From Candidatus Micrarchaeaceae archaeon (GTDB lineage: Archaea; Micrarchaeota; Micrarchaeia; Micrarchaeales; Micrarchaeaceae): a DNA stretch of 30,835 nucleotides. Below, piece after piece: positions 1-12,000 of this stretch. The position numbers are program-made. Position 1 is the first letter of the stretch. Each line of letters begins with the position of its first letter. The DNA is taken from positions 1-30,835 of the forward strand of contig JBEKES010000006.1 in assembly GCA_050013715.1 (NCBI GenBank). The letters are read 5' to 3'.

Positions 1-3000
1 CAATAAAAACTTACGTCGTAAAATAAATTTACTTATCAGAGGGCCTTTGCACTTCTGGCGTATAACGGCGAGGGCGGTTCATTTTCTTATAGTAAGTTGT
101 GCTAATTTTGATAAATTTTGACAGATTTTGTATAAGAAATCTTACTGCTCACTTCTTCGAGATAACACGTCTAGAAGTAAAGTAAGGGATTTGAACCGGC
201 AATCCAAACTCACATTTTTCATAAAAGTGAAACTATAAATACTATCTAAAACAGAGATAAAATGTTGATAACATGGTAGAAACGGTTAAAAGGACTGGTA
301 AAGTATTTGAACTTGGAAATCCTTACCTTAATGAAGGTGGCTCTTGTTATTTTTGGCCTAGTGGCAACCGCGAATCTAATGTGGCTCTTTTTAGAAATAA
401 AAAAGATGCTTTAGGGGAGCACCTTGTTACAATGATAAGAGAATATAACAAAAGCTTAGAAACTAGAATGGAAGAGCCACATTATCCTAGATTACAATTA
501 GCAGATGAGAGCATAACAATCCATATAGGTAACGGTGGAAGATGGTTCGGATTGGGTTATGATATTGGTGGTGGTATTATGTCAATGCATAACCTCGATT
601 CATATGTTGATAGAATTCTGGCATTTAATGTAACTTCAGATTGCCTAGAGTTTTTGCACAAAGATATGAAAGCACCTAAAATAATACCTGAAGGAAATGA
701 AATATATAAAATTGAATATCCGTTGCCAGAGGGTTATAGTTTACTACCAATGAATAGTCCATTTTTACTTAATAGAGATTTGCTAAAACGGATTTGTAAT
801 GTATCTAAAATAGGATTTTTGGGCATTAAAGAACAAAAAACCAAACAAGAAGTATTACTTGATGGTGCTAAAGTAAATATAGAAGATGGCATTTGTATTG
901 GAGAGGGCTTTAAAAGATGGGGTGTTCCACGCTCTACATATTTACTGGCAAAATTAGTAGACTCCTGTACTTTTAACTAAATGTCAACGGTTCAAATAAT
1001 TTTGTGTCGTAAATATTATTGGAATAAAGCTTGTTTATTATAGAGATTTTGAATAAGTTTTCATAAAATAATTAAATCTTCTATAAGAAAAGGGGTGTCC
1101 GATAAATAGGTAAATTGAAACCCATTTATCAGTATCATTATTTTGACTGGTTCAGAAAACGAATTTTGCGTTTGGAACTTTGAATACATTATGTATATTC
1201 ACTCTTGTAATCAGTTCCTTTTGTCTCATTTCTTTAAGTTTTGAAGAGATTCCTTCACCAAACGTCTTTTTGAAACTCCAAATTTCACTCTCTATGTGCG
1301 GTCGTTTGTTGTAACCTGATTTTTGTTTCCATTTCTTCTGATTTATCATTCTATGTCTATTTTCTGTTTGCATATGCAAAACAGATTCTCTCCCAGGTCC
1401 ATCTCGCAATCCAAATTGTTCTACAACATGTTTCTTACGAATACCTCTACATTTTATCATTGAATTTCTACGTACTGGTATTACCGCCACAATACCATTT
1501 CTCTCCAGATACCTGAATGTTTTTTCAGAGTCAAATGCACCATCTGCCAATAACTTTTCTAATATTCCCAGAAAAGGATCCAACAACCTTTTTACTACTT
1601 TATTATCATGTATGTATTCTTTTGTTTGTACCATGTTCAATATCTGACCTGTTTTGTCATCTATAAAGAAATGCGTCTTTATCCAACTTTTACGCACTCT
1701 GTATCGCTTACCGCACCATTCATTACTACCTGTTTTCTTCAATCCTGTTGAATCTATTATTCCTACTATTTTATCCTTGGTAAAATTAGAGAATAATCTA
1801 AATTTGATCCCAAATTTTTCCATTTTATTAATTCTCCACCATAATGTCCTAAAATCTGGAATTTTTGGTACTTTCAACTTATCCTTTATCATTTCCATAA
1901 ATCCAGTTACCTGTCTATAACCGTATCTCAACATTGATTTTGCGGTAAATCCTAATAAAATCAGATACGGATTGTAACTAAAAGGCCTGCCTCTCTTCTT
2001 TTTGTTGTTTGATAAAAGGACTTCTTCTGCCATCTGCAAAGATTCTTCCGAAATGTACAGGGTAAAATTACCCCTATTTACTAACATCTGGTTATATAAT
2101 TTCCAATTTCTAGGTGTTCTCATTCTGGTCGCCAAAGTCCAGAATACTCCTAAGGTTTTATACCTTAGGGTTTAGTGGAATTATTGGACACCCCTATAAG
2201 AAAAGTAAGATACATATAAGGGCTTCAATCCGCCGGATTGAAGATCGGCGAGGGCGGACTTCGACGTGTCGCAGTCGAAATTAGCCGAGTTCAAATCCCT
2301 TAATTTTTGTAAAAATAAACACATAAATATCTAATAAAACAAAGTAAATTAAGTGATAGAAATGCCAAGAGGAAACTTAATGGTAGTTACGTTGAAGCAA
2401 CATCTATTTCCAAGTGAAATAGAGCTTAGAAGAAACGCAACTTTAGATAAACCTTCAAAGAAAATTCCAGCTACGCTATGGTTAGATAAGCGTGATCATG
2501 ATCCAGAATACATATGGTTGGGTGTACCAACAGGTATTACTTCAGAAGCTTATAATGGCGTAAATAAAGGTAAAAATACAACTTTTGCTTGTCTCGATCG
2601 CAAAGAAGTAATTGCATTAAAAAGAGAATTGGTTTAATTTCCCAGAAAAGAGGAAAAAGGAAGACGTAAGAGATTGGCCATAAATAGAAGAGGACTTAAA
2701 CTTAATGATTTGCGTAGAAAAGAAATAGAGCAACAACAAACAGAAGAATTGAAACTACACCACGAGAGAATAACTCAAACACAGGGAAGAATGAGGGATA
2801 GAATACATTTTTGAGTGAGTAAATGGCAATTCAAACGAAACCAAAAGTACCTATCGATACTCAAAGAGTTGGGAATATTATAGATGATTGGGCAAGAAAA
2901 ACTGGAAATGGCAATCTCTTAGTTCTTGGGGTATTATCTGCTGCAAGATTAAACAATTATTTATATGAATTAGAACATGTAAAAAAACAAATTGTAAAGG

Positions 3001-9000: not shown

Positions 9001-12000
9001 ATCATAGTCCTAATGGTAAGTCAAAAAATCCAGTTTAAATTCTTGAAAAGGATTTGGACTAAAAAAGAACATATAAATATCTAATAAAACAGAGTATTTT
9101 GAGTGAGTAAATGACTAATCATGATAATTTGTCACGAAGAGCAAAGACAATACATTCAACATTAGACAATAGCAAATTAGTGCTTGGAATATTTACAGTT
9201 TCAGGTGAACAATCAAGGTTGTCAATTCGTATGGGACAAGGACCTAACGGAGCTAGCGGAACTTTTAGTGTTGAAGGAGCAGAATCAATGAACAATTTTC
9301 TCAATAACTTTCTTAGGCAAGGAAGTGAATTTAAATTGATTATCCTATCCGAAAGATTAAGTGAAAGAACAGCAAGACTCATTCAAAATAAAGCAAACTT
9401 GTTAGAATGCTATTTAGATGAAGATATTCTTAGAAATATCAAAACTAGACGTGTATTATTTATAGATTATTGCGATGCACCAAAAGAAGTCGGTTGGTAT
9501 TTTGTAGATAAAAATAATAAAACATTTCAAAGTATTTCTGAAGCTGAGTATAATGAGTTAGCATGGAATGAAAGATTATATGTTTATCCTCAAGCTTCTA
9601 AGGCAATTGAAGAAAAACGCCCATTAGTATTTGGTTATACTTGTACAAGAACTACGTTGCAAAATGGGGTTCTATTTCTTGGAGATAATTTTAATACTGA
9701 TGATGCCGCTCAAGTAGTTTTGAAGTTAAGTAGCTAAAAATTAATTATAAAACAGAGTACACTCTTTACATAAAAGTATGTAGTTTGGGGCTTTAGCGCA
9801 AAAAGCTAATGCTCGGCGAGGGCGGACTTCAACGTGTCGCAGTCGAAGAAATAAGGCTTCAAAGCTATAAAAAAGTACAATATAAATATCTAATAAAACA
9901 GAGTATTTTGAGTGGTATTATGACAACTAAAATAGGGTCGCGGCTAAGTACGGCTGCAAAAGAAAGATTATGTGAAACTTTCGGTAAATATTTGAACAAA
10001 AGAGATCCAGATATGGGTCATACTGCTGCAGATTTTATCATAAATAGTATGCTTGACAGCAAGATATTGCAAAACCAAACTTTAACAAATAAATTTGTAG
10101 AAATTGTTACAAAAAATTATGGATCTTATCCAGAAGCAGCAATGAATTTATCAGTGCCTCTTGATAATGATGTATATAATATGGGAGAAAAAGAATTTGA
10201 TAATTATTTATTTATAATAAGTAGCCCTAACTTTTTGACAGGATTAATATCCTTTGAGAACATGAGCAATGTAATTCATCATTTTTCAGAAAGGATGGCA
10301 TTCAGGGCAGCAGACAAGGCAACAGATGCAAAAGATGAGTTATATGCGGTCCTTGATTCTTTAAAAGACCCAAATGTCATATCATTAGTGCATGGGATTA
10401 TTGGTAGTCCTGCCGAAGATGGGGTTTTAGAAATAATTTCTTATGCTCTTCAATATGGTATTGAACCAACTAAAAAAGTTGGTGAGATATTAACAATTAT
10501 GAAAGACACACCAAGAGCAGTTGAAGCTATACGTAAAATTAGTGATGAATTCGCTAAATACGTTGCTGACGATGTTAAAGCTAAATCAGAAAATATGGGA
10601 TTATCTAGAAAATAAAGTGATATAAATGCCCACTGTAAATATCTATTATAAAACCAAAAGAGACGGTGCAACTCTAAAACCTGTTATACCAAAGCTAAAG
10701 ACGTACCTAGCCAAGAAACTAACCTGTGGCGAAATTAAGCTAAGGCAAGATGAAATAAGCGTGAGACCCATTAAAGTTGAAGGTAATGGGATGCTTGGTA
10801 GGGTAGAAGTTGATATTGTTGCTCATGAATTTGCTGAAAGAGTAAAGAATCAGGATAAGATATGTTTTGATACTAAGCAATGGCTAGAAAAAGAAGCTAG
10901 ACCAATAGATAATTTCAGAGTCTGGCTTAATCTAGGACAATTAGGACATGATGTACTGCCTACTTAATTTCCTTGTACCTTTACTAAGTAGCAAGGGAGA
11001 AATGTTATCGTAACGATTGAAGACCGGCGAGGGCAACTGAGACGTTACACATCTAGGAATTGGGGTTAAAAGCCCTCATTTTCTAGAGATAAAATCGATT
11101 GTAATCTAAAAATAGCTTTATATATTTAAAACTCCATAATTGAATAGTGATTGAATAGTCTTAATAAGCAGAAATATTGAAAATGAACATGAAAGAGCAG
11201 TAGTTTGGGGTGTTAACCCTGCATTATGCATGCCAAAAGTTAGTGGAAGGCAAAAATTATTAAATGATAATTTACGAATAGCTGCAATTAATGGTAATAT
11301 TGAAGGCGTAAAAGTAGCCATTAAGGATGGTGCAAATGTGAATGCAGTAGACCCAAATAATGGAACAGCTTTGGTAGATGCTGCATCCCGAAATTATGTT
11401 GAAATAGTAAATGTACTTTTGGATAATAAGGCTGATGTTAATGTGGCTACTTACCCTAATCGGATGACTGCTTTGATGTACGCATCAAATAATGGATATA
11501 CTGAAATTGTTAGGGCACTACTTGATAAAAATGCTGATGTTGAACGAAGAAACTGGGATGGCAATAATGCAATAAATTTTGCAAGAGAAAATAGCCATGG
11601 CAAAATCTTAACTTTGTTAGAATCGCATCTACTTAGAAAAACTAATTAAGTACAAATCATAAACCATTATCATATTGCGGGCTTTTTCTTTTTATGGCGT
11701 AAATGAAAAAGCTCGGCGAGGGCGTGTCTCAAAAAGGTTTTTCATCTACATATATAAAAAATATTTGAGTGAAAATTTAGTTGCATGCAACTCCGAAATT
11801 GTAACTAGCGTAGGTCGCGTTAGAAACATTCAAGGATTGTCCTAAATTAGATATCTGCAACTGGCCCTCCAAAGTATACATGCTAGAAAAATTCTTCCCA
11901 TAAGTTCCATTCAAAAATAGAGGATTTTGAAACCCTACCGGGAAGTACTTGCATATGAAAGCTATGCTTGTTATGTTGCTTGTCTGAATAGGTACATAGG

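Follow-up and report, generated by a model that had tools for sequence, protein, structure and literature searches.

Integrase-less units lying between att repeats at tRNA gene ends have been described as CIMEs and as tandem archaeal elements, which depend on an integrase, whether in trans or in cis (PMC5704250, PMC6563490, PMC8371274). SNJ2-type integrases also use a very short core at the tRNA 3' end, 14 bp long, and their subgroups are tied to the target tRNA (PMC5861418); they are described from Halobacteria only (PMC8371274), with the att site behind the 3' end of int. Integrons and CALINs, archaeal ones included, form one-way arrays of small, mostly single-gene cassettes, also in the absence of an integrase (PMC9668308). 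Tycheposons, as described in 10.1101/2020.12.28.424599, carry their own inward-facing tyrosine integrase at one end, have att sites of about 40 nt and one integrase per tRNA; newcomers push older elements deeper into the island, and partial tRNA copies mark old events. In casposons, the recognized stretch lies upstream of the insertion point and the length of the duplication is fixed (PMC6614799).

The window analyzed here (positions 1-30,835 of contig C6) belongs to a Candidatus Micrarchaeaceae archaeon genome (G000) of about 1 Mb. That genome has at least 13 cassette stacks, and none is longer than the array in the window. The stacks are a variant of the known integrase-less tRNA-end units: the repeats are tRNA 3' ends, the tRNA stays intact, and related autonomous elements with an intact integrase use the same kind of site. 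Compared with CIMEs as described, there are up to 13 units per stack, about 40 in a 1-Mb genome and 13 tRNA genes involved, the units are short (0.35-2 kb), mostly single-gene and lack integrase remnants, and ends and cargo cross tRNA targets. From tycheposons they differ in that the main units are non-autonomous and arms cross targets. Unlike SNJ2-type elements, the core is 11 bp, int faces inward from a start 65-96 bp within the left end, the enzyme has a C-terminal zinc ribbon, and the hosts are relatives of this genome and not Halobacteria; the available part of PMC5861418 describes no arrays of tiny integrase-less cassettes.

By membership the stacks are not integrons. The one-way organization, the small single-gene units (44/67 with one gene; 74/96 ORFs co-oriented) and the cargo types are similar, but entry is at a tRNA gene end and not at attI beside intI, and many cassettes have their own promoter. 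No IntI was found in G000, and four members of the candidate integrase family reach 39-47 bits on TIGR02249 (IntI; cut-off 265), their best NCBIfam match being archaeal XerA-like (97-129 bits, under the cut-off of 220). Integron attC sites are hairpins with covarying arms. Here the junction is a target-specific 11-bp repeat, and folding at z <= -2 is seen in just 4 of the 21 internal junctions (control 7%). Casposon membership was also rejected, as no Cas1-solo was found in G000 (93% complete) and inverted ends are rare (see below). Our literature search found no integrase-less tRNA-end cassette arrays described for Micrarchaeota.

The tRNA-Arg(GCG) array

Exact matching recovers all 12 plus-strand copies of GGCGAGGGC listed for the window in an earlier note on this DNA, starting at 67, 2247, 3432, 3874, 4750, 5495, 6299, 6946, 8967, 9815, 11026 and 11715; allowing one mismatch yields 14 matches, whereas shuffled sequences give 1.12 on average and never more than 5. 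The genome total of 15 exact copies is reproduced as well (12 on C6, two on C29, one on C60), and the tRNA-Arg(GCG) gene indeed lies at C29:10318-10393. The earlier statement that C29 and C6 do not overlap and that their link is not shown is wrong: C29 ends in 84 nt that recur, with 2 mismatches, at the very start of C6, and the join is crossed by one contig of run X2 and by a public contig (locus L225), possibly from the same source material as the assembly, that covers both contigs at 99.99% with all 14 copies consecutive. The joined array consists of tRNA-Arg(GCG) and 13 copies enclosing 13 cassettes (Table 1). No further tRNA-end copy with up to two mismatches is present in the window beyond 11714..11724; similar accessory genes, with borders that are not clear, occupy 12-30 kb.

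The repeat families reported for C6 are present as described (54 nt five times, 100 nt and 71 nt three times each). The promoter-leader, assigned to each cassette in the title of the earlier note, opens only 5 of 11 C6 cassettes, and its 19-nt pattern (up to two mismatches) stands at 17 sites in the genome instead of 13. The 20 nt behind the tRNA that the earlier note mentions are the left arm of a cassette and not chromosomal flank, and the same motif follows many other tRNAs.

Table 1. Array features on contig C6; tRNA-end copies correspond to tRNA-Arg positions 63-73
Feature	Position	Strand	Remarks
Cassette 2, right arm	1..65	+	Within the 84-nt C29/C6 overlap; 75-77% identity to two arms in G010
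Cassette 2, cargo			231-aa hydrophobic ORF, on C29
11-bp copy	66..76	+	Junction 3 of 14, tRNA counted as 1
Cassette 3	77..2245	+	235-aa ORF 273-980, no Pfam match; right arm of the same family as arms of the cassettes ending at 3873 and 5494
IS, 1103 bp	1092..2194	-	DDE transposase 1152-2135; terminal inverted repeats; 10-bp target duplication; inserted within the cassette 3 right arm; occurs once in the assembly
11-bp copy	2246..2256	+	
Cassette 4	2257..3430	+	Left arm with promoter-leader 2312-2365; ORFs 2362-2637 and 2823-3344, no Pfam match
11-bp copy	3431..3441	+	
Cassette 5, 431 bp	3442..3872	+	Promoter-leader 3504-3557; 59-aa ORF 3553-3732; right arm (120 bp) 83% identical to that of cassette 7
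11-bp copy	3873..3883	+	
Cassette 6	3884..4748	+	DNA methylase-family ORF 4041-4688; over 61 bp, right arm shares 88.5% identity with arm of the tRNA-Asp cassette on C31
11-bp copy	4749..4759	+	
Cassette 7	4760..5493	+	Promoter-leader 4806-4859; 149-aa ORF 4855-5304, no Pfam match
11-bp copy	5494..5504	+	
Cassette 8	5505..6297	+	MazE/AbrB-like ORF 5578-5838 (E 0.006, under cut-off); PIN ORF 5820-6233
tRNA-end copy	6298..6308	+	Position 73 is A instead of G
Cassette 9	6309..6944	-	VOC/glyoxalase-like ORF 6389-6823
11-bp copy	6945..6955	+	
Cassette 10	6956..8965	mixed	TPR-like ORF 6983-7804 (-); 69-aa ORF 7785-7994 (-); pair of 8247-8534 (+) and ParE-like 8531-8884 (+); may hide a lost junction
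11-bp copy	8966..8976	+	
Cassette 11	8977..9813	+	Promoter-leader 9062-9115; 208-aa ORF 9111-9737, no Pfam match
11-bp copy	9814..9824	+	
Cassette 12	9825..11024	+	Promoter-leader 9871-9924; ORFs 9920-10615 and 10626-10967, no Pfam match
tRNA-end copy	11025..11035	+	Position 73 is A instead of G
Cassette 13	11036..11713	+	Ankyrin-repeat ORF 11230-11649
Last 11-bp copy	11714..11724	+	

Stacks behind other tRNA genes and the structure of cassette ends

Cassette stacks are not limited to tRNA-Arg; the same ends are found behind at least 13 tRNA genes, each with its own repeat. In this genome, 13 tRNA genes are followed by 40 exact copies of their own positions 63-72. This total combines a script search, in which 10 of 27 tRNA heads have exact downstream copies (17 in 168 kb), three additional genes with 5, 2 and 3 copies found by hand, the 12 copies of C6 and a single Glu-type copy from C28. 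The script found no copies in 179 kb upstream and none on the reverse strand. Altogether, 14 stacks take up 41.5 kb, or 4.2% of the assembly, and hold about 40 mostly one-gene cassettes.

The repeat, previously given as 11-12 nt, is a block of 11 nt with sharp edges, at positions 63-73 in standard tRNA numbering. With positions 66-72 as the seed (n=34), the values in unselected flanks are 0.50 at position 62, 1.00 at 63, 1.00 at 73 and 0.26 at 74; with the seed 63-69 (n=36), positions 70-73 are at 0.89-0.97. The block is equally sharp where position 63 is T (Phe, Asn). Exact cores number 65 and one-mismatch cores 14, in a search biased toward exact ones, and 747 kb contain 32 junctions with the tRNA's own core and none with a foreign core.

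Two T-loop-like boxes stand in fixed register at the cassette ends. In the right arms of 75 junctions, a reverse box occupies -26..-16 (C at -16 in 52/75) and a forward box -10..0 (G/T at -3 in 74/75). Left arms often carry a TATA-type promoter and a leader, and 27/74 have a TCGAC-type motif within the first 40 nt, compared with 1/74 controls. An inverted box at a fixed spot right of the core is unsupported over 74 arms (z from -2.8 to 2.4, no clear peak). Most cassettes lack terminal inverted repeats: the best 14-mer identity between their ends averages 7.4, versus 7.0 in shuffled pairs, and only 3 of 75 units reach 12/14 or more. Dyad pairing does not exceed that of shuffled partners (z 1.3 for all, 0.7 for cluster representatives); in one Asn-type arm family 7-8 of 11 positions pair, with one compensatory change. 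It has been left open whether a very short, stem-loop-free tRNA-end att site is enough for recombination (PMC8371274); as the boxes lie outside the shared block, our data suggest that the core alone is not.

Left ends, right ends and cargo reassort among cassettes. Fifteen right-arm pairs with 70% identity or more adjoin different tRNA cores, compared with 0/2775 shifted controls (the pairs are not independent), and arms with 81-89% identity abut cores differing at up to 7 of 11 positions. Among 31 cassette pairs with similar right arms, the left arm is also common to only three, and a 110-bp unit of G010 consists of a left arm and a right arm, with no gene. Cargo includes toxin-antitoxin, GNAT, glyoxalase, HD, Fic and methyltransferase genes, and homologous cargo occurs behind different tRNAs, inside the duplication of the tRNA concerned. 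In particular, the cassette 8 pair has a homologue in G153 that makes up a 946-bp unit at another tRNA, and a gene 79% identical to the cassette 9 ORF occupies a 546-bp unit of G151 that lies behind tRNA-Asn.

The integrase family and the origin of the cassettes

As in the earlier note, no integrase was found in the 93%-complete assembly of G000: searches with PF00589 and with the G005 integrase protein gave no tyrosine recombinase, and the family profile gave only a 43-residue C-terminal match with stops. Proteins of the small cassettes matched neither integrases nor the integrase Pfam family, and no integrase fragments were seen. Of 301 genomes from the phylum, 107 encode a family of tyrosine integrases with a C-terminal zinc ribbon; the active-site residues R, K, H, R, W and Y are retained, and 28 of 32 distinct integrases lie directly behind a tRNA gene (11 amino acids covered). 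In autonomous elements the integrase gene starts 65-96 bp downstream of the core on the tRNA side, and the seven elements that could be followed to the other end terminate there in a further copy of the 11-bp repeat. The three copies in G005 with an integrase between the first two, reported before, are confirmed, and the right arm of this element clusters with cassette arms. Some relatives described as having an empty site do carry copies: in G007 one with a single mismatch lies 732 nt behind tRNA-Arg(CCG), and in G009 and G010 Arg-type copies are distant from any tRNA gene. Five Arg-type cores in G005, G009 and G010 adjoin protein-coding genes, with no tRNA gene.

The repeated site-specific integration at a tRNA 3' end proposed earlier is thus supported, the array being one locus of a genome-wide system. 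With a probability of about 60%, the cassettes are non-autonomous integrative units inserted in trans by tRNA-end tyrosine integrases of Micrarchaeota. A cassette would comprise a left arm (often with promoter and leader), one or two genes and a right arm, the integrase being supplied by a helper element that may have been lost, passed through or left unassembled. The enzyme would bind the near-universal T-loop box of the tRNA gene and look-alike boxes in the arms; a cassette circle would then recombine into the 3' strand of the acceptor stem at positions 63-73, restoring the tRNA, leaving the 11 bp twice and pushing older cassettes outward. Cassettes and arms may occasionally switch target, because the binding box is common to most tRNAs; against this, integrases more than about 62% identical keep one tRNA class, which suggests that targets change more slowly than the arms show. 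Observed directly are the repeats and their 63-73 limits, the joined array, the register of the boxes, the recurrence of arms and cargo at different tRNAs, and the integrase family with its position; the movement of small cassettes by this family, the formation of circles, binding at the boxes, the polarity and the way in which genes come to lie between the arms are inferred. Against trans insertion speak the lack of a tyrosine recombinase match in G000 and of a cassette-skipping joint in contigs of four runs (depth about 1-9, contigs only), as well as the lack of support, over 74 arms, for the inverted box that a classical core site needs. Moreover, foreign cores would be expected now and then if the core were carried, and the 11-bp block is longer than the 7-bp overlap of lambda-type sites (PMC8371274).

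The count of no foreign and 32 own cores favours integron-like capture by target copying, as do the sharpness of the block whatever the tRNA (position 63 = T included), the similar arms on cores of different sequence, the reassortment of arms and cargo and the gene-less unit of G010. Here the cassette would have no tRNA core: the enzyme would dock on the T-loop box of any tRNA gene and make cuts 11 bp apart, at 63 and 73, and repair would copy the bases of the target to either side, as in a target-site duplication. As generic arms would be joined to newly captured genes, the system would make cassettes and not only move them. Tyrosine recombinases, however, are not known to make target duplications; no Cas1 was found in G000, and the five Arg-type cores lacking a tRNA gene fit a carried core more easily. 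Target copying is unlikely. A genome-wide, integron-like capture system of DPANN and perhaps many other archaea, with any tRNA gene as entry, a T-loop-reading tyrosine integrase duplicating the following 11 bp and cassettes built anew from generic left arms with a promoter, right arms with the boxes and captured single genes, is a tentative and rather unlikely proposal.

Improbable, in our view, is that the units are tandem large integrase elements that shrank in place by CIME-type accretion and are now immobile. Accretion and decay to integrase-less remnants have precedents (as described in PMC5704250, PMC6563490 and PMC8371274), G000 has no integrase match, no strain variation is seen in four low-depth runs, one arm contains an IS, and the accessory genes at 12-30 kb have unclear borders. 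The graveyard caveat of the earlier note stands in that no activity is seen today, but it is weakened by the reassortment and by the tidiness of the 67 small units (44 one-gene, median 78% coding, 74 of 96 ORFs in one direction). No integrase fragments were found among their proteins, although autonomous elements begin with the integrase; most cores are exact (even if the search favours these), and genes shared with distant genomes sit there at different tRNAs, again as neat units. A casposase or DDE transposase-type enzyme preferring tRNA ends could produce a duplication of fixed length, as the IS does with its 10 bp, and casposase recognizes a stretch upstream of its target (PMC6614799); such an enzyme is very improbable, given that Cas1 was not found in G000, the cassette ends are mostly not inverted repeats, the IS has its own ends and only one copy, and a tyrosine integrase opens the large elements that share the repeat.

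Few routes of gene gain are known in small-genome archaea, and here about 4% of a 1-Mb genome lies in tRNA-end stacks whose toxin-antitoxin, methyltransferase and detoxification-type genes recur at different tRNAs in distant relatives. The mechanism is directly testable now that a candidate enzyme family is named and the exact extent of the 11-bp block and the arrangement of the boxes are given. An integrase steerable to many tRNA ends would make a useful tool for insertion; target duplication, if true, would mean a tyrosine recombinase working without core homology and a second cassette platform besides integrons.

Among the best 11 of 80 viral integrase loci, no free form with matching att was recognized. 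In the Asn stack of G180, three distal cores are identical to tRNA-Asn ends of other genomes.

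The tRNA-Arg array and stacks at other tRNA genes

The repeat array in the window is real. The 12 exact copies of GGCGAGGGC that the earlier note had reported on the + strand, from 67 to 11715, were recovered by pattern search, as was its count of 15 exact copies genome-wide, two of them on contig C29, where one is the 3' end of tRNA-Arg(GCG). With at most one mismatch, the window contains 14 matches, compared with a shuffle mean of 1.12. The statement that C29 does not overlap C6, the contig of the window, has to be revised, as the end of C29 matches the start of C6 over 84 nt with 2 mismatches. 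The join is also bridged by one contig of the sequencing run X2 and by locus L225, which spans both contigs at 99.99%, with the tRNA and 13 copies consecutive, and which may be the same source material; thus, the array extends over 13.0 kb and comprises the tRNA and 13 cassettes. The assembly (G000) is 977 kb long and 93% complete. Rfam yields four matches in window positions 1-13000, all of them under the gathering score. The second copy of the GGCGAGGGC type in G003, already suspected of being accidental, has flanks of 50% GC and probably occurs by chance; neither G003 nor G079 is the basis of any claim here. Another copy, at G005:C1:76041, sits within a coding sequence.

Below, the core is the 11-bp copy of tRNA positions 63-73, a cassette (unit) is the DNA between two cores, with its left arm on the tRNA side and its right arm at the far end, and a stack is a tRNA gene (head) with its downstream copies and cassettes. 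The motif that follows tRNA-Arg recurs downstream of other tRNA genes of G000. In a script scan, the head's own positions 63-72 were copied exactly downstream of 10 of 27 tRNA heads (17 copies in 168 kb), with no copies in 179 kb upstream and none on the reverse strand. The script missed three heads, which by our reading are tRNA-His (5 copies) and two Ala-type tRNAs (2 and 3 copies). Adding the 12 copies on C6 and one on C28 brings the total to 40 exact copies, distributed over 13 tRNA genes, and 4.2% of the assembly (41.5 kb) lies in the 14 stacks, a one-mismatch Thr unit being counted as one of them.

Unit length on C6 ranges from 431 to 2169 bp (11 units), and 8 of the 18 ORFs scanned there have Pfam matches (E 0.05 or better), namely DDE transposase, DNA methylase, MazE-like (weak) with PIN, VOC/glyoxalase-like, TPR-like, ParE-like and ankyrin. 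The 54-nt promoter-leader said to open five cassettes, which we take to be an archaeal TATA box plus leader, was found again by repeat comparison, and one right-arm family is common to three C6 cassettes with unrelated genes. In cassette 4, the first ORF ends at 2637 and coding-like DNA continues to the next leader at 2805 (window 2362-2812), possibly representing a broken gene. Past the last repeat, window positions 11777-30835 contain low-GC accessory genes, for several of which homologs are located downstream of tRNA-Arg (in G008 and G007) or in a G010 cassette. No borders are seen here around the genes at 12-30 kb, whose homologs in relatives follow tRNAs or belong to cassettes, and judging by this gene content the region may be an older, borderless part of the island.

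Coordinates of individual stacks, tRNA-less cores and the insertion sequence (IS)
Feature	Location	Strand	Description	Remark
tRNA-His stack	G000:C17:15604-10703	-	T-loop intron, gene missed by ARAGORN default; 5 further 3'-end copies	second-longest G000 stack
IS, 1103 bp	window 1092-2194		DDE_Tnp_1 transposase, inverted ends, 10-bp target duplication	single copy, in a cassette's right arm
tRNA-Asn stack L398	G180:C4:412259-422564		right-arm family is a clean inverted repeat, 5-nt spacer	one compensatory change
Arg-type core, T-loop-like box before it, no tRNA gene	G005:C1:112723 (L003:2724)			behind protein-coding gene
Arg-type core, T-loop-like box before it, no tRNA gene	G009:C3:71134 (L010:2135)			behind protein-coding gene
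Arg-type core, T-loop-like box before it, no tRNA gene	G010:C2:100045 (L011:17046)			behind protein-coding gene
Arg-type core, T-loop-like box before it, no tRNA gene	G010:C2:243110 (L012:3111)			behind protein-coding gene
Arg-type core, T-loop-like box before it, no tRNA gene	G010:C3:119621 (L020:14622)			behind protein-coding gene

Stacks in relatives and anatomy of the junction

Stacks of the same kind lie near tRNA genes, in regions that were selected rather than sampled at random, in G004, G005, G007, G009, G010, G042 and G092 and at two named Micrarchaeota loci, with further ones in G107, G119, G151, G153, G171 and G180 (6 junctions over 10.3 kb in the latter). The system is patchy, since none of the 17 tRNA heads of the single-contig genome G019 (96%), which has no PF00589 match, is followed by an exact copy. 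G180 (88% complete) and G151 (83%) have stacks and no PF00589 match. Most of the units extracted from the sequences (67 of 75) are shorter than 3.4 kb; these contain one gene in 44 cases, two in 16, more in 6 and none in 1, with a median coding share of 78% and 74 of 96 ORFs pointing away from the tRNA. Outside the window, 34 of 78 cargo proteins have Pfam matches at E 0.001, among them GNAT, glyoxalase, HD, Fic, PIN, ParE, AbiEii, methyltransferases, peptidases and MFS. A G009 cassette carries a complete GMP synthase gene (L124:13405-14988), and from such gene content housekeeping-type enzymes appear to be captured too. On viral contigs, the 16-nt junction pattern matches 43 loci, once in each. 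A metagenome scan with a 20-nt pattern also produced 43 loci, no second strain of this genome being among them: five are overlapping pieces of one contig near-identical to G000, and 38 are GC-rich non-tRNA contexts.

Nine candidate copies, judged to be chance matches, adjacent tRNA genes or long duplications of the T-arm, are left out of the set of 75 junctions analyzed here, as is every row of loci L004, L018, L019 and L105. What was found later, namely three stacks of G000 (His, Asn and Ala) and the loci from L387 on, is also outside this set. Identity to the stack head (n=73) is 0.37 at position 62, 0.95-1.00 at positions 63-72 (selected by the search itself), 0.93 at position 73 and 0.40 at position 74, and these limits do not change with seeds leaving the edges free. 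Two T-loop-like boxes, 5 nt apart, precede position 63 in the 75 right arms, the reverse one at -26..-16 and the forward one at -10..0. Since these boxes are degenerate and common to the arm family, not to the target, they belong to the cassette. An attC-like hairpin model found no overall support, the right-arm boxes having no overall covariation as a hairpin.

Many left arms have a forward T-loop-like box, at +10/11 or +28-31; 27 of 74 contain a TCGAC-type motif (1 of 74 controls). At the two Ala-type tRNAs, which have a divergent T-loop, the left-arm box has the Ala form in 3 of the 7 junctions, which fits putative protein binding sites tuned to the target. Helical phasing of the left-arm boxes is not claimed: the offsets group at +10/11 and +28-31, yet periods 9 to 11 fit about equally. 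A fourfold symmetric site with an inverted box fixed right of the core is unsupported over 74 arms; on visual inspection it suits no more than the 14 arms whose forward box lies at +10/+11.

Ends and cargo at different targets

Fifteen pairs of right arms with at least 70% identity over 27 nt adjoin different cores, compared with 0 of 2775 shifted controls; these pairs form about six families and are not independent, and two additional similar-arm pairs involve a decayed copy of one same core. Within G000, an Arg-stack arm and an Asp-stack arm are 88.5% identical over 61 bp. Cargo also recurs at different tRNA genes: the window VOC gene has a counterpart of 79% identity behind tRNA-Asn of G151, within a unit of 546 bp, a pair homologous to the window PIN pair fills a 946-bp unit at a different tRNA of G153, and homologs of the window ParE pair are present in G107 and G171, within Asn and Ala stacks. 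The arms in these distant cases differ, and the other 29 cargo loci mostly showed no repeat in the 1.5 kb on their flanks. Among cassette pairs whose right arms are similar, just 3 of 31 also have a common left arm (0.7 expected if independent), hence the two ends are mostly not inherited together. A 110-bp unit of G010 consists of two arms and no gene.

Tyrosine integrases and possible movement of cassettes

As had been described, a tyrosine integrase of G005 lies within a 6.2-kb element that ends in the Arg-type repeat; this protein of 397 aa (L002:2920-4113) is encoded directly behind tRNA-Arg. In the integrase family, the active-site residues R, K, H, R, W and Y are retained and a C-terminal CxxC...CxxC motif is added, and within the phylum 107 of 301 genomes have a member; assignment to IntI or XerA was rejected, both families' cut-offs being missed. 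Among 32 distinct integrases, 28 are directly behind a tRNA gene (11 amino acids represented). The far end was reached for seven elements of 6-17 kb, in which the integrase is 65-96 bp inside the start and a copy of positions 63-72 closes the element. The tRNA class is the same among integrases more than about 62% identical, and sisters at 51-57% are found on Arg, Thr, Asn and Asp; the tree (FastTree, untrimmed alignment) has poorly supported deep branches. In G000 itself (93% complete), searches with PF00589 and the family profile gave no match, consistent with the earlier note, and no Cas1 was found there either.

Our preferred reading, with a probability of roughly 0.6, is that the cassettes are non-autonomous and that integrases of this tRNA-linked family move them in trans. 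The integrase would bind the T-loop-like boxes and exchange strands within positions 63-73, where the true overlap may be 7-8 bp, as identity at 70-73 can stem from the need to restore the tRNA; we also infer a polarity of stack growth. That any tRNA gene serves as an entry site, the integrase duplicating the following 11 bp and the arms being joined to captured genes, is a tentative and rather doubtful generalization.

Two observations stand against movement in trans and would favor an enzyme that duplicates the target's own bases: there is no foreign core among 32 junctions, and arms seem to switch target faster than integrases do. Such target copying is nevertheless unlikely, given the five Arg-type cores of G005, G009 and G010 that follow a T-loop-like box beside protein genes (Table), and the three distal cores of the G180 tRNA-Asn stack, which equal tRNA-Asn ends of other genomes. 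The latter were dropped by the filtered count. Of 14 one-mismatch cores in that count, 3 are identical to a tRNA end of another species, where 1.0 would be expected (P 0.07), and two of these three come from the stack of a neighbouring tRNA. Short cassette stacks begin at four of the five tRNA-less cores, the genes beside them, read by eye, presumably being RtcB, ferredoxin, TBP, Nop5 and an ABC-type gene. As far as the corresponding sites of G000 are assembled, they have no core. Secondary entry sites and displaced tRNA ends are candidate readings of these cores. A pure graveyard of decayed elements would account for the absent integrase in G000 and for the lack of variation in contigs of 4 low-depth runs (of 24 listed), where no cassette-skipping joint was found, but it leaves the tidy single-gene units without integrase remnants unexplained, and we consider it quite improbable. 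Two runs have loose ends exactly behind tRNA position 73, which may come from other organisms or from an unassembled tRNA-Arg(CCG).

Tandem att-site reuse, integrase loss and short cores have already been described in PMC6563490, PMC8371274, PMC5704250 (CIMEs), PMC5861418 (SNJ2), PMC5217437 (additive islands) and the tycheposon preprint 10.1101/2020.12.28.424599. Archaeal integrons and CALINs are the subject of PMC9668308, the accessible part of which mentions neither tRNA nor Micrarchaeota. The G000 stacks work like an integron array, yet they are not a member of the integrons, belonging to the broad class of tRNA-targeting tyrosine-integrase systems. In the mostly open papers covered, no such arrays are described for Micrarchaeota; small units of a similar kind may be listed in the att tables of PMC6563490 and PMC5861418. 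G000 contributes the count of targets within one genome, the precise limits of the block, the arrangement of the boxes and the occurrence of ends and cargo across targets.

Beside the 11-bp class, there is a second, longer class of duplications including the whole T-arm or more (L104:18497, L155:8476, L388, L405, L423), probably produced by another integrase type on the same tRNAs. Near an Lhr-like helicase gene of G009 (L010:7024-8301), ORF pieces resemble, by translation reading, a group II intron/retroelement reverse transcriptase; this candidate has homologs at G000:C25:189-1427. In G296, three equal-score integrase matches exactly 25,989 bp apart (C1:341107, 367096 and 393085) represent a tandem triplicate of one element.
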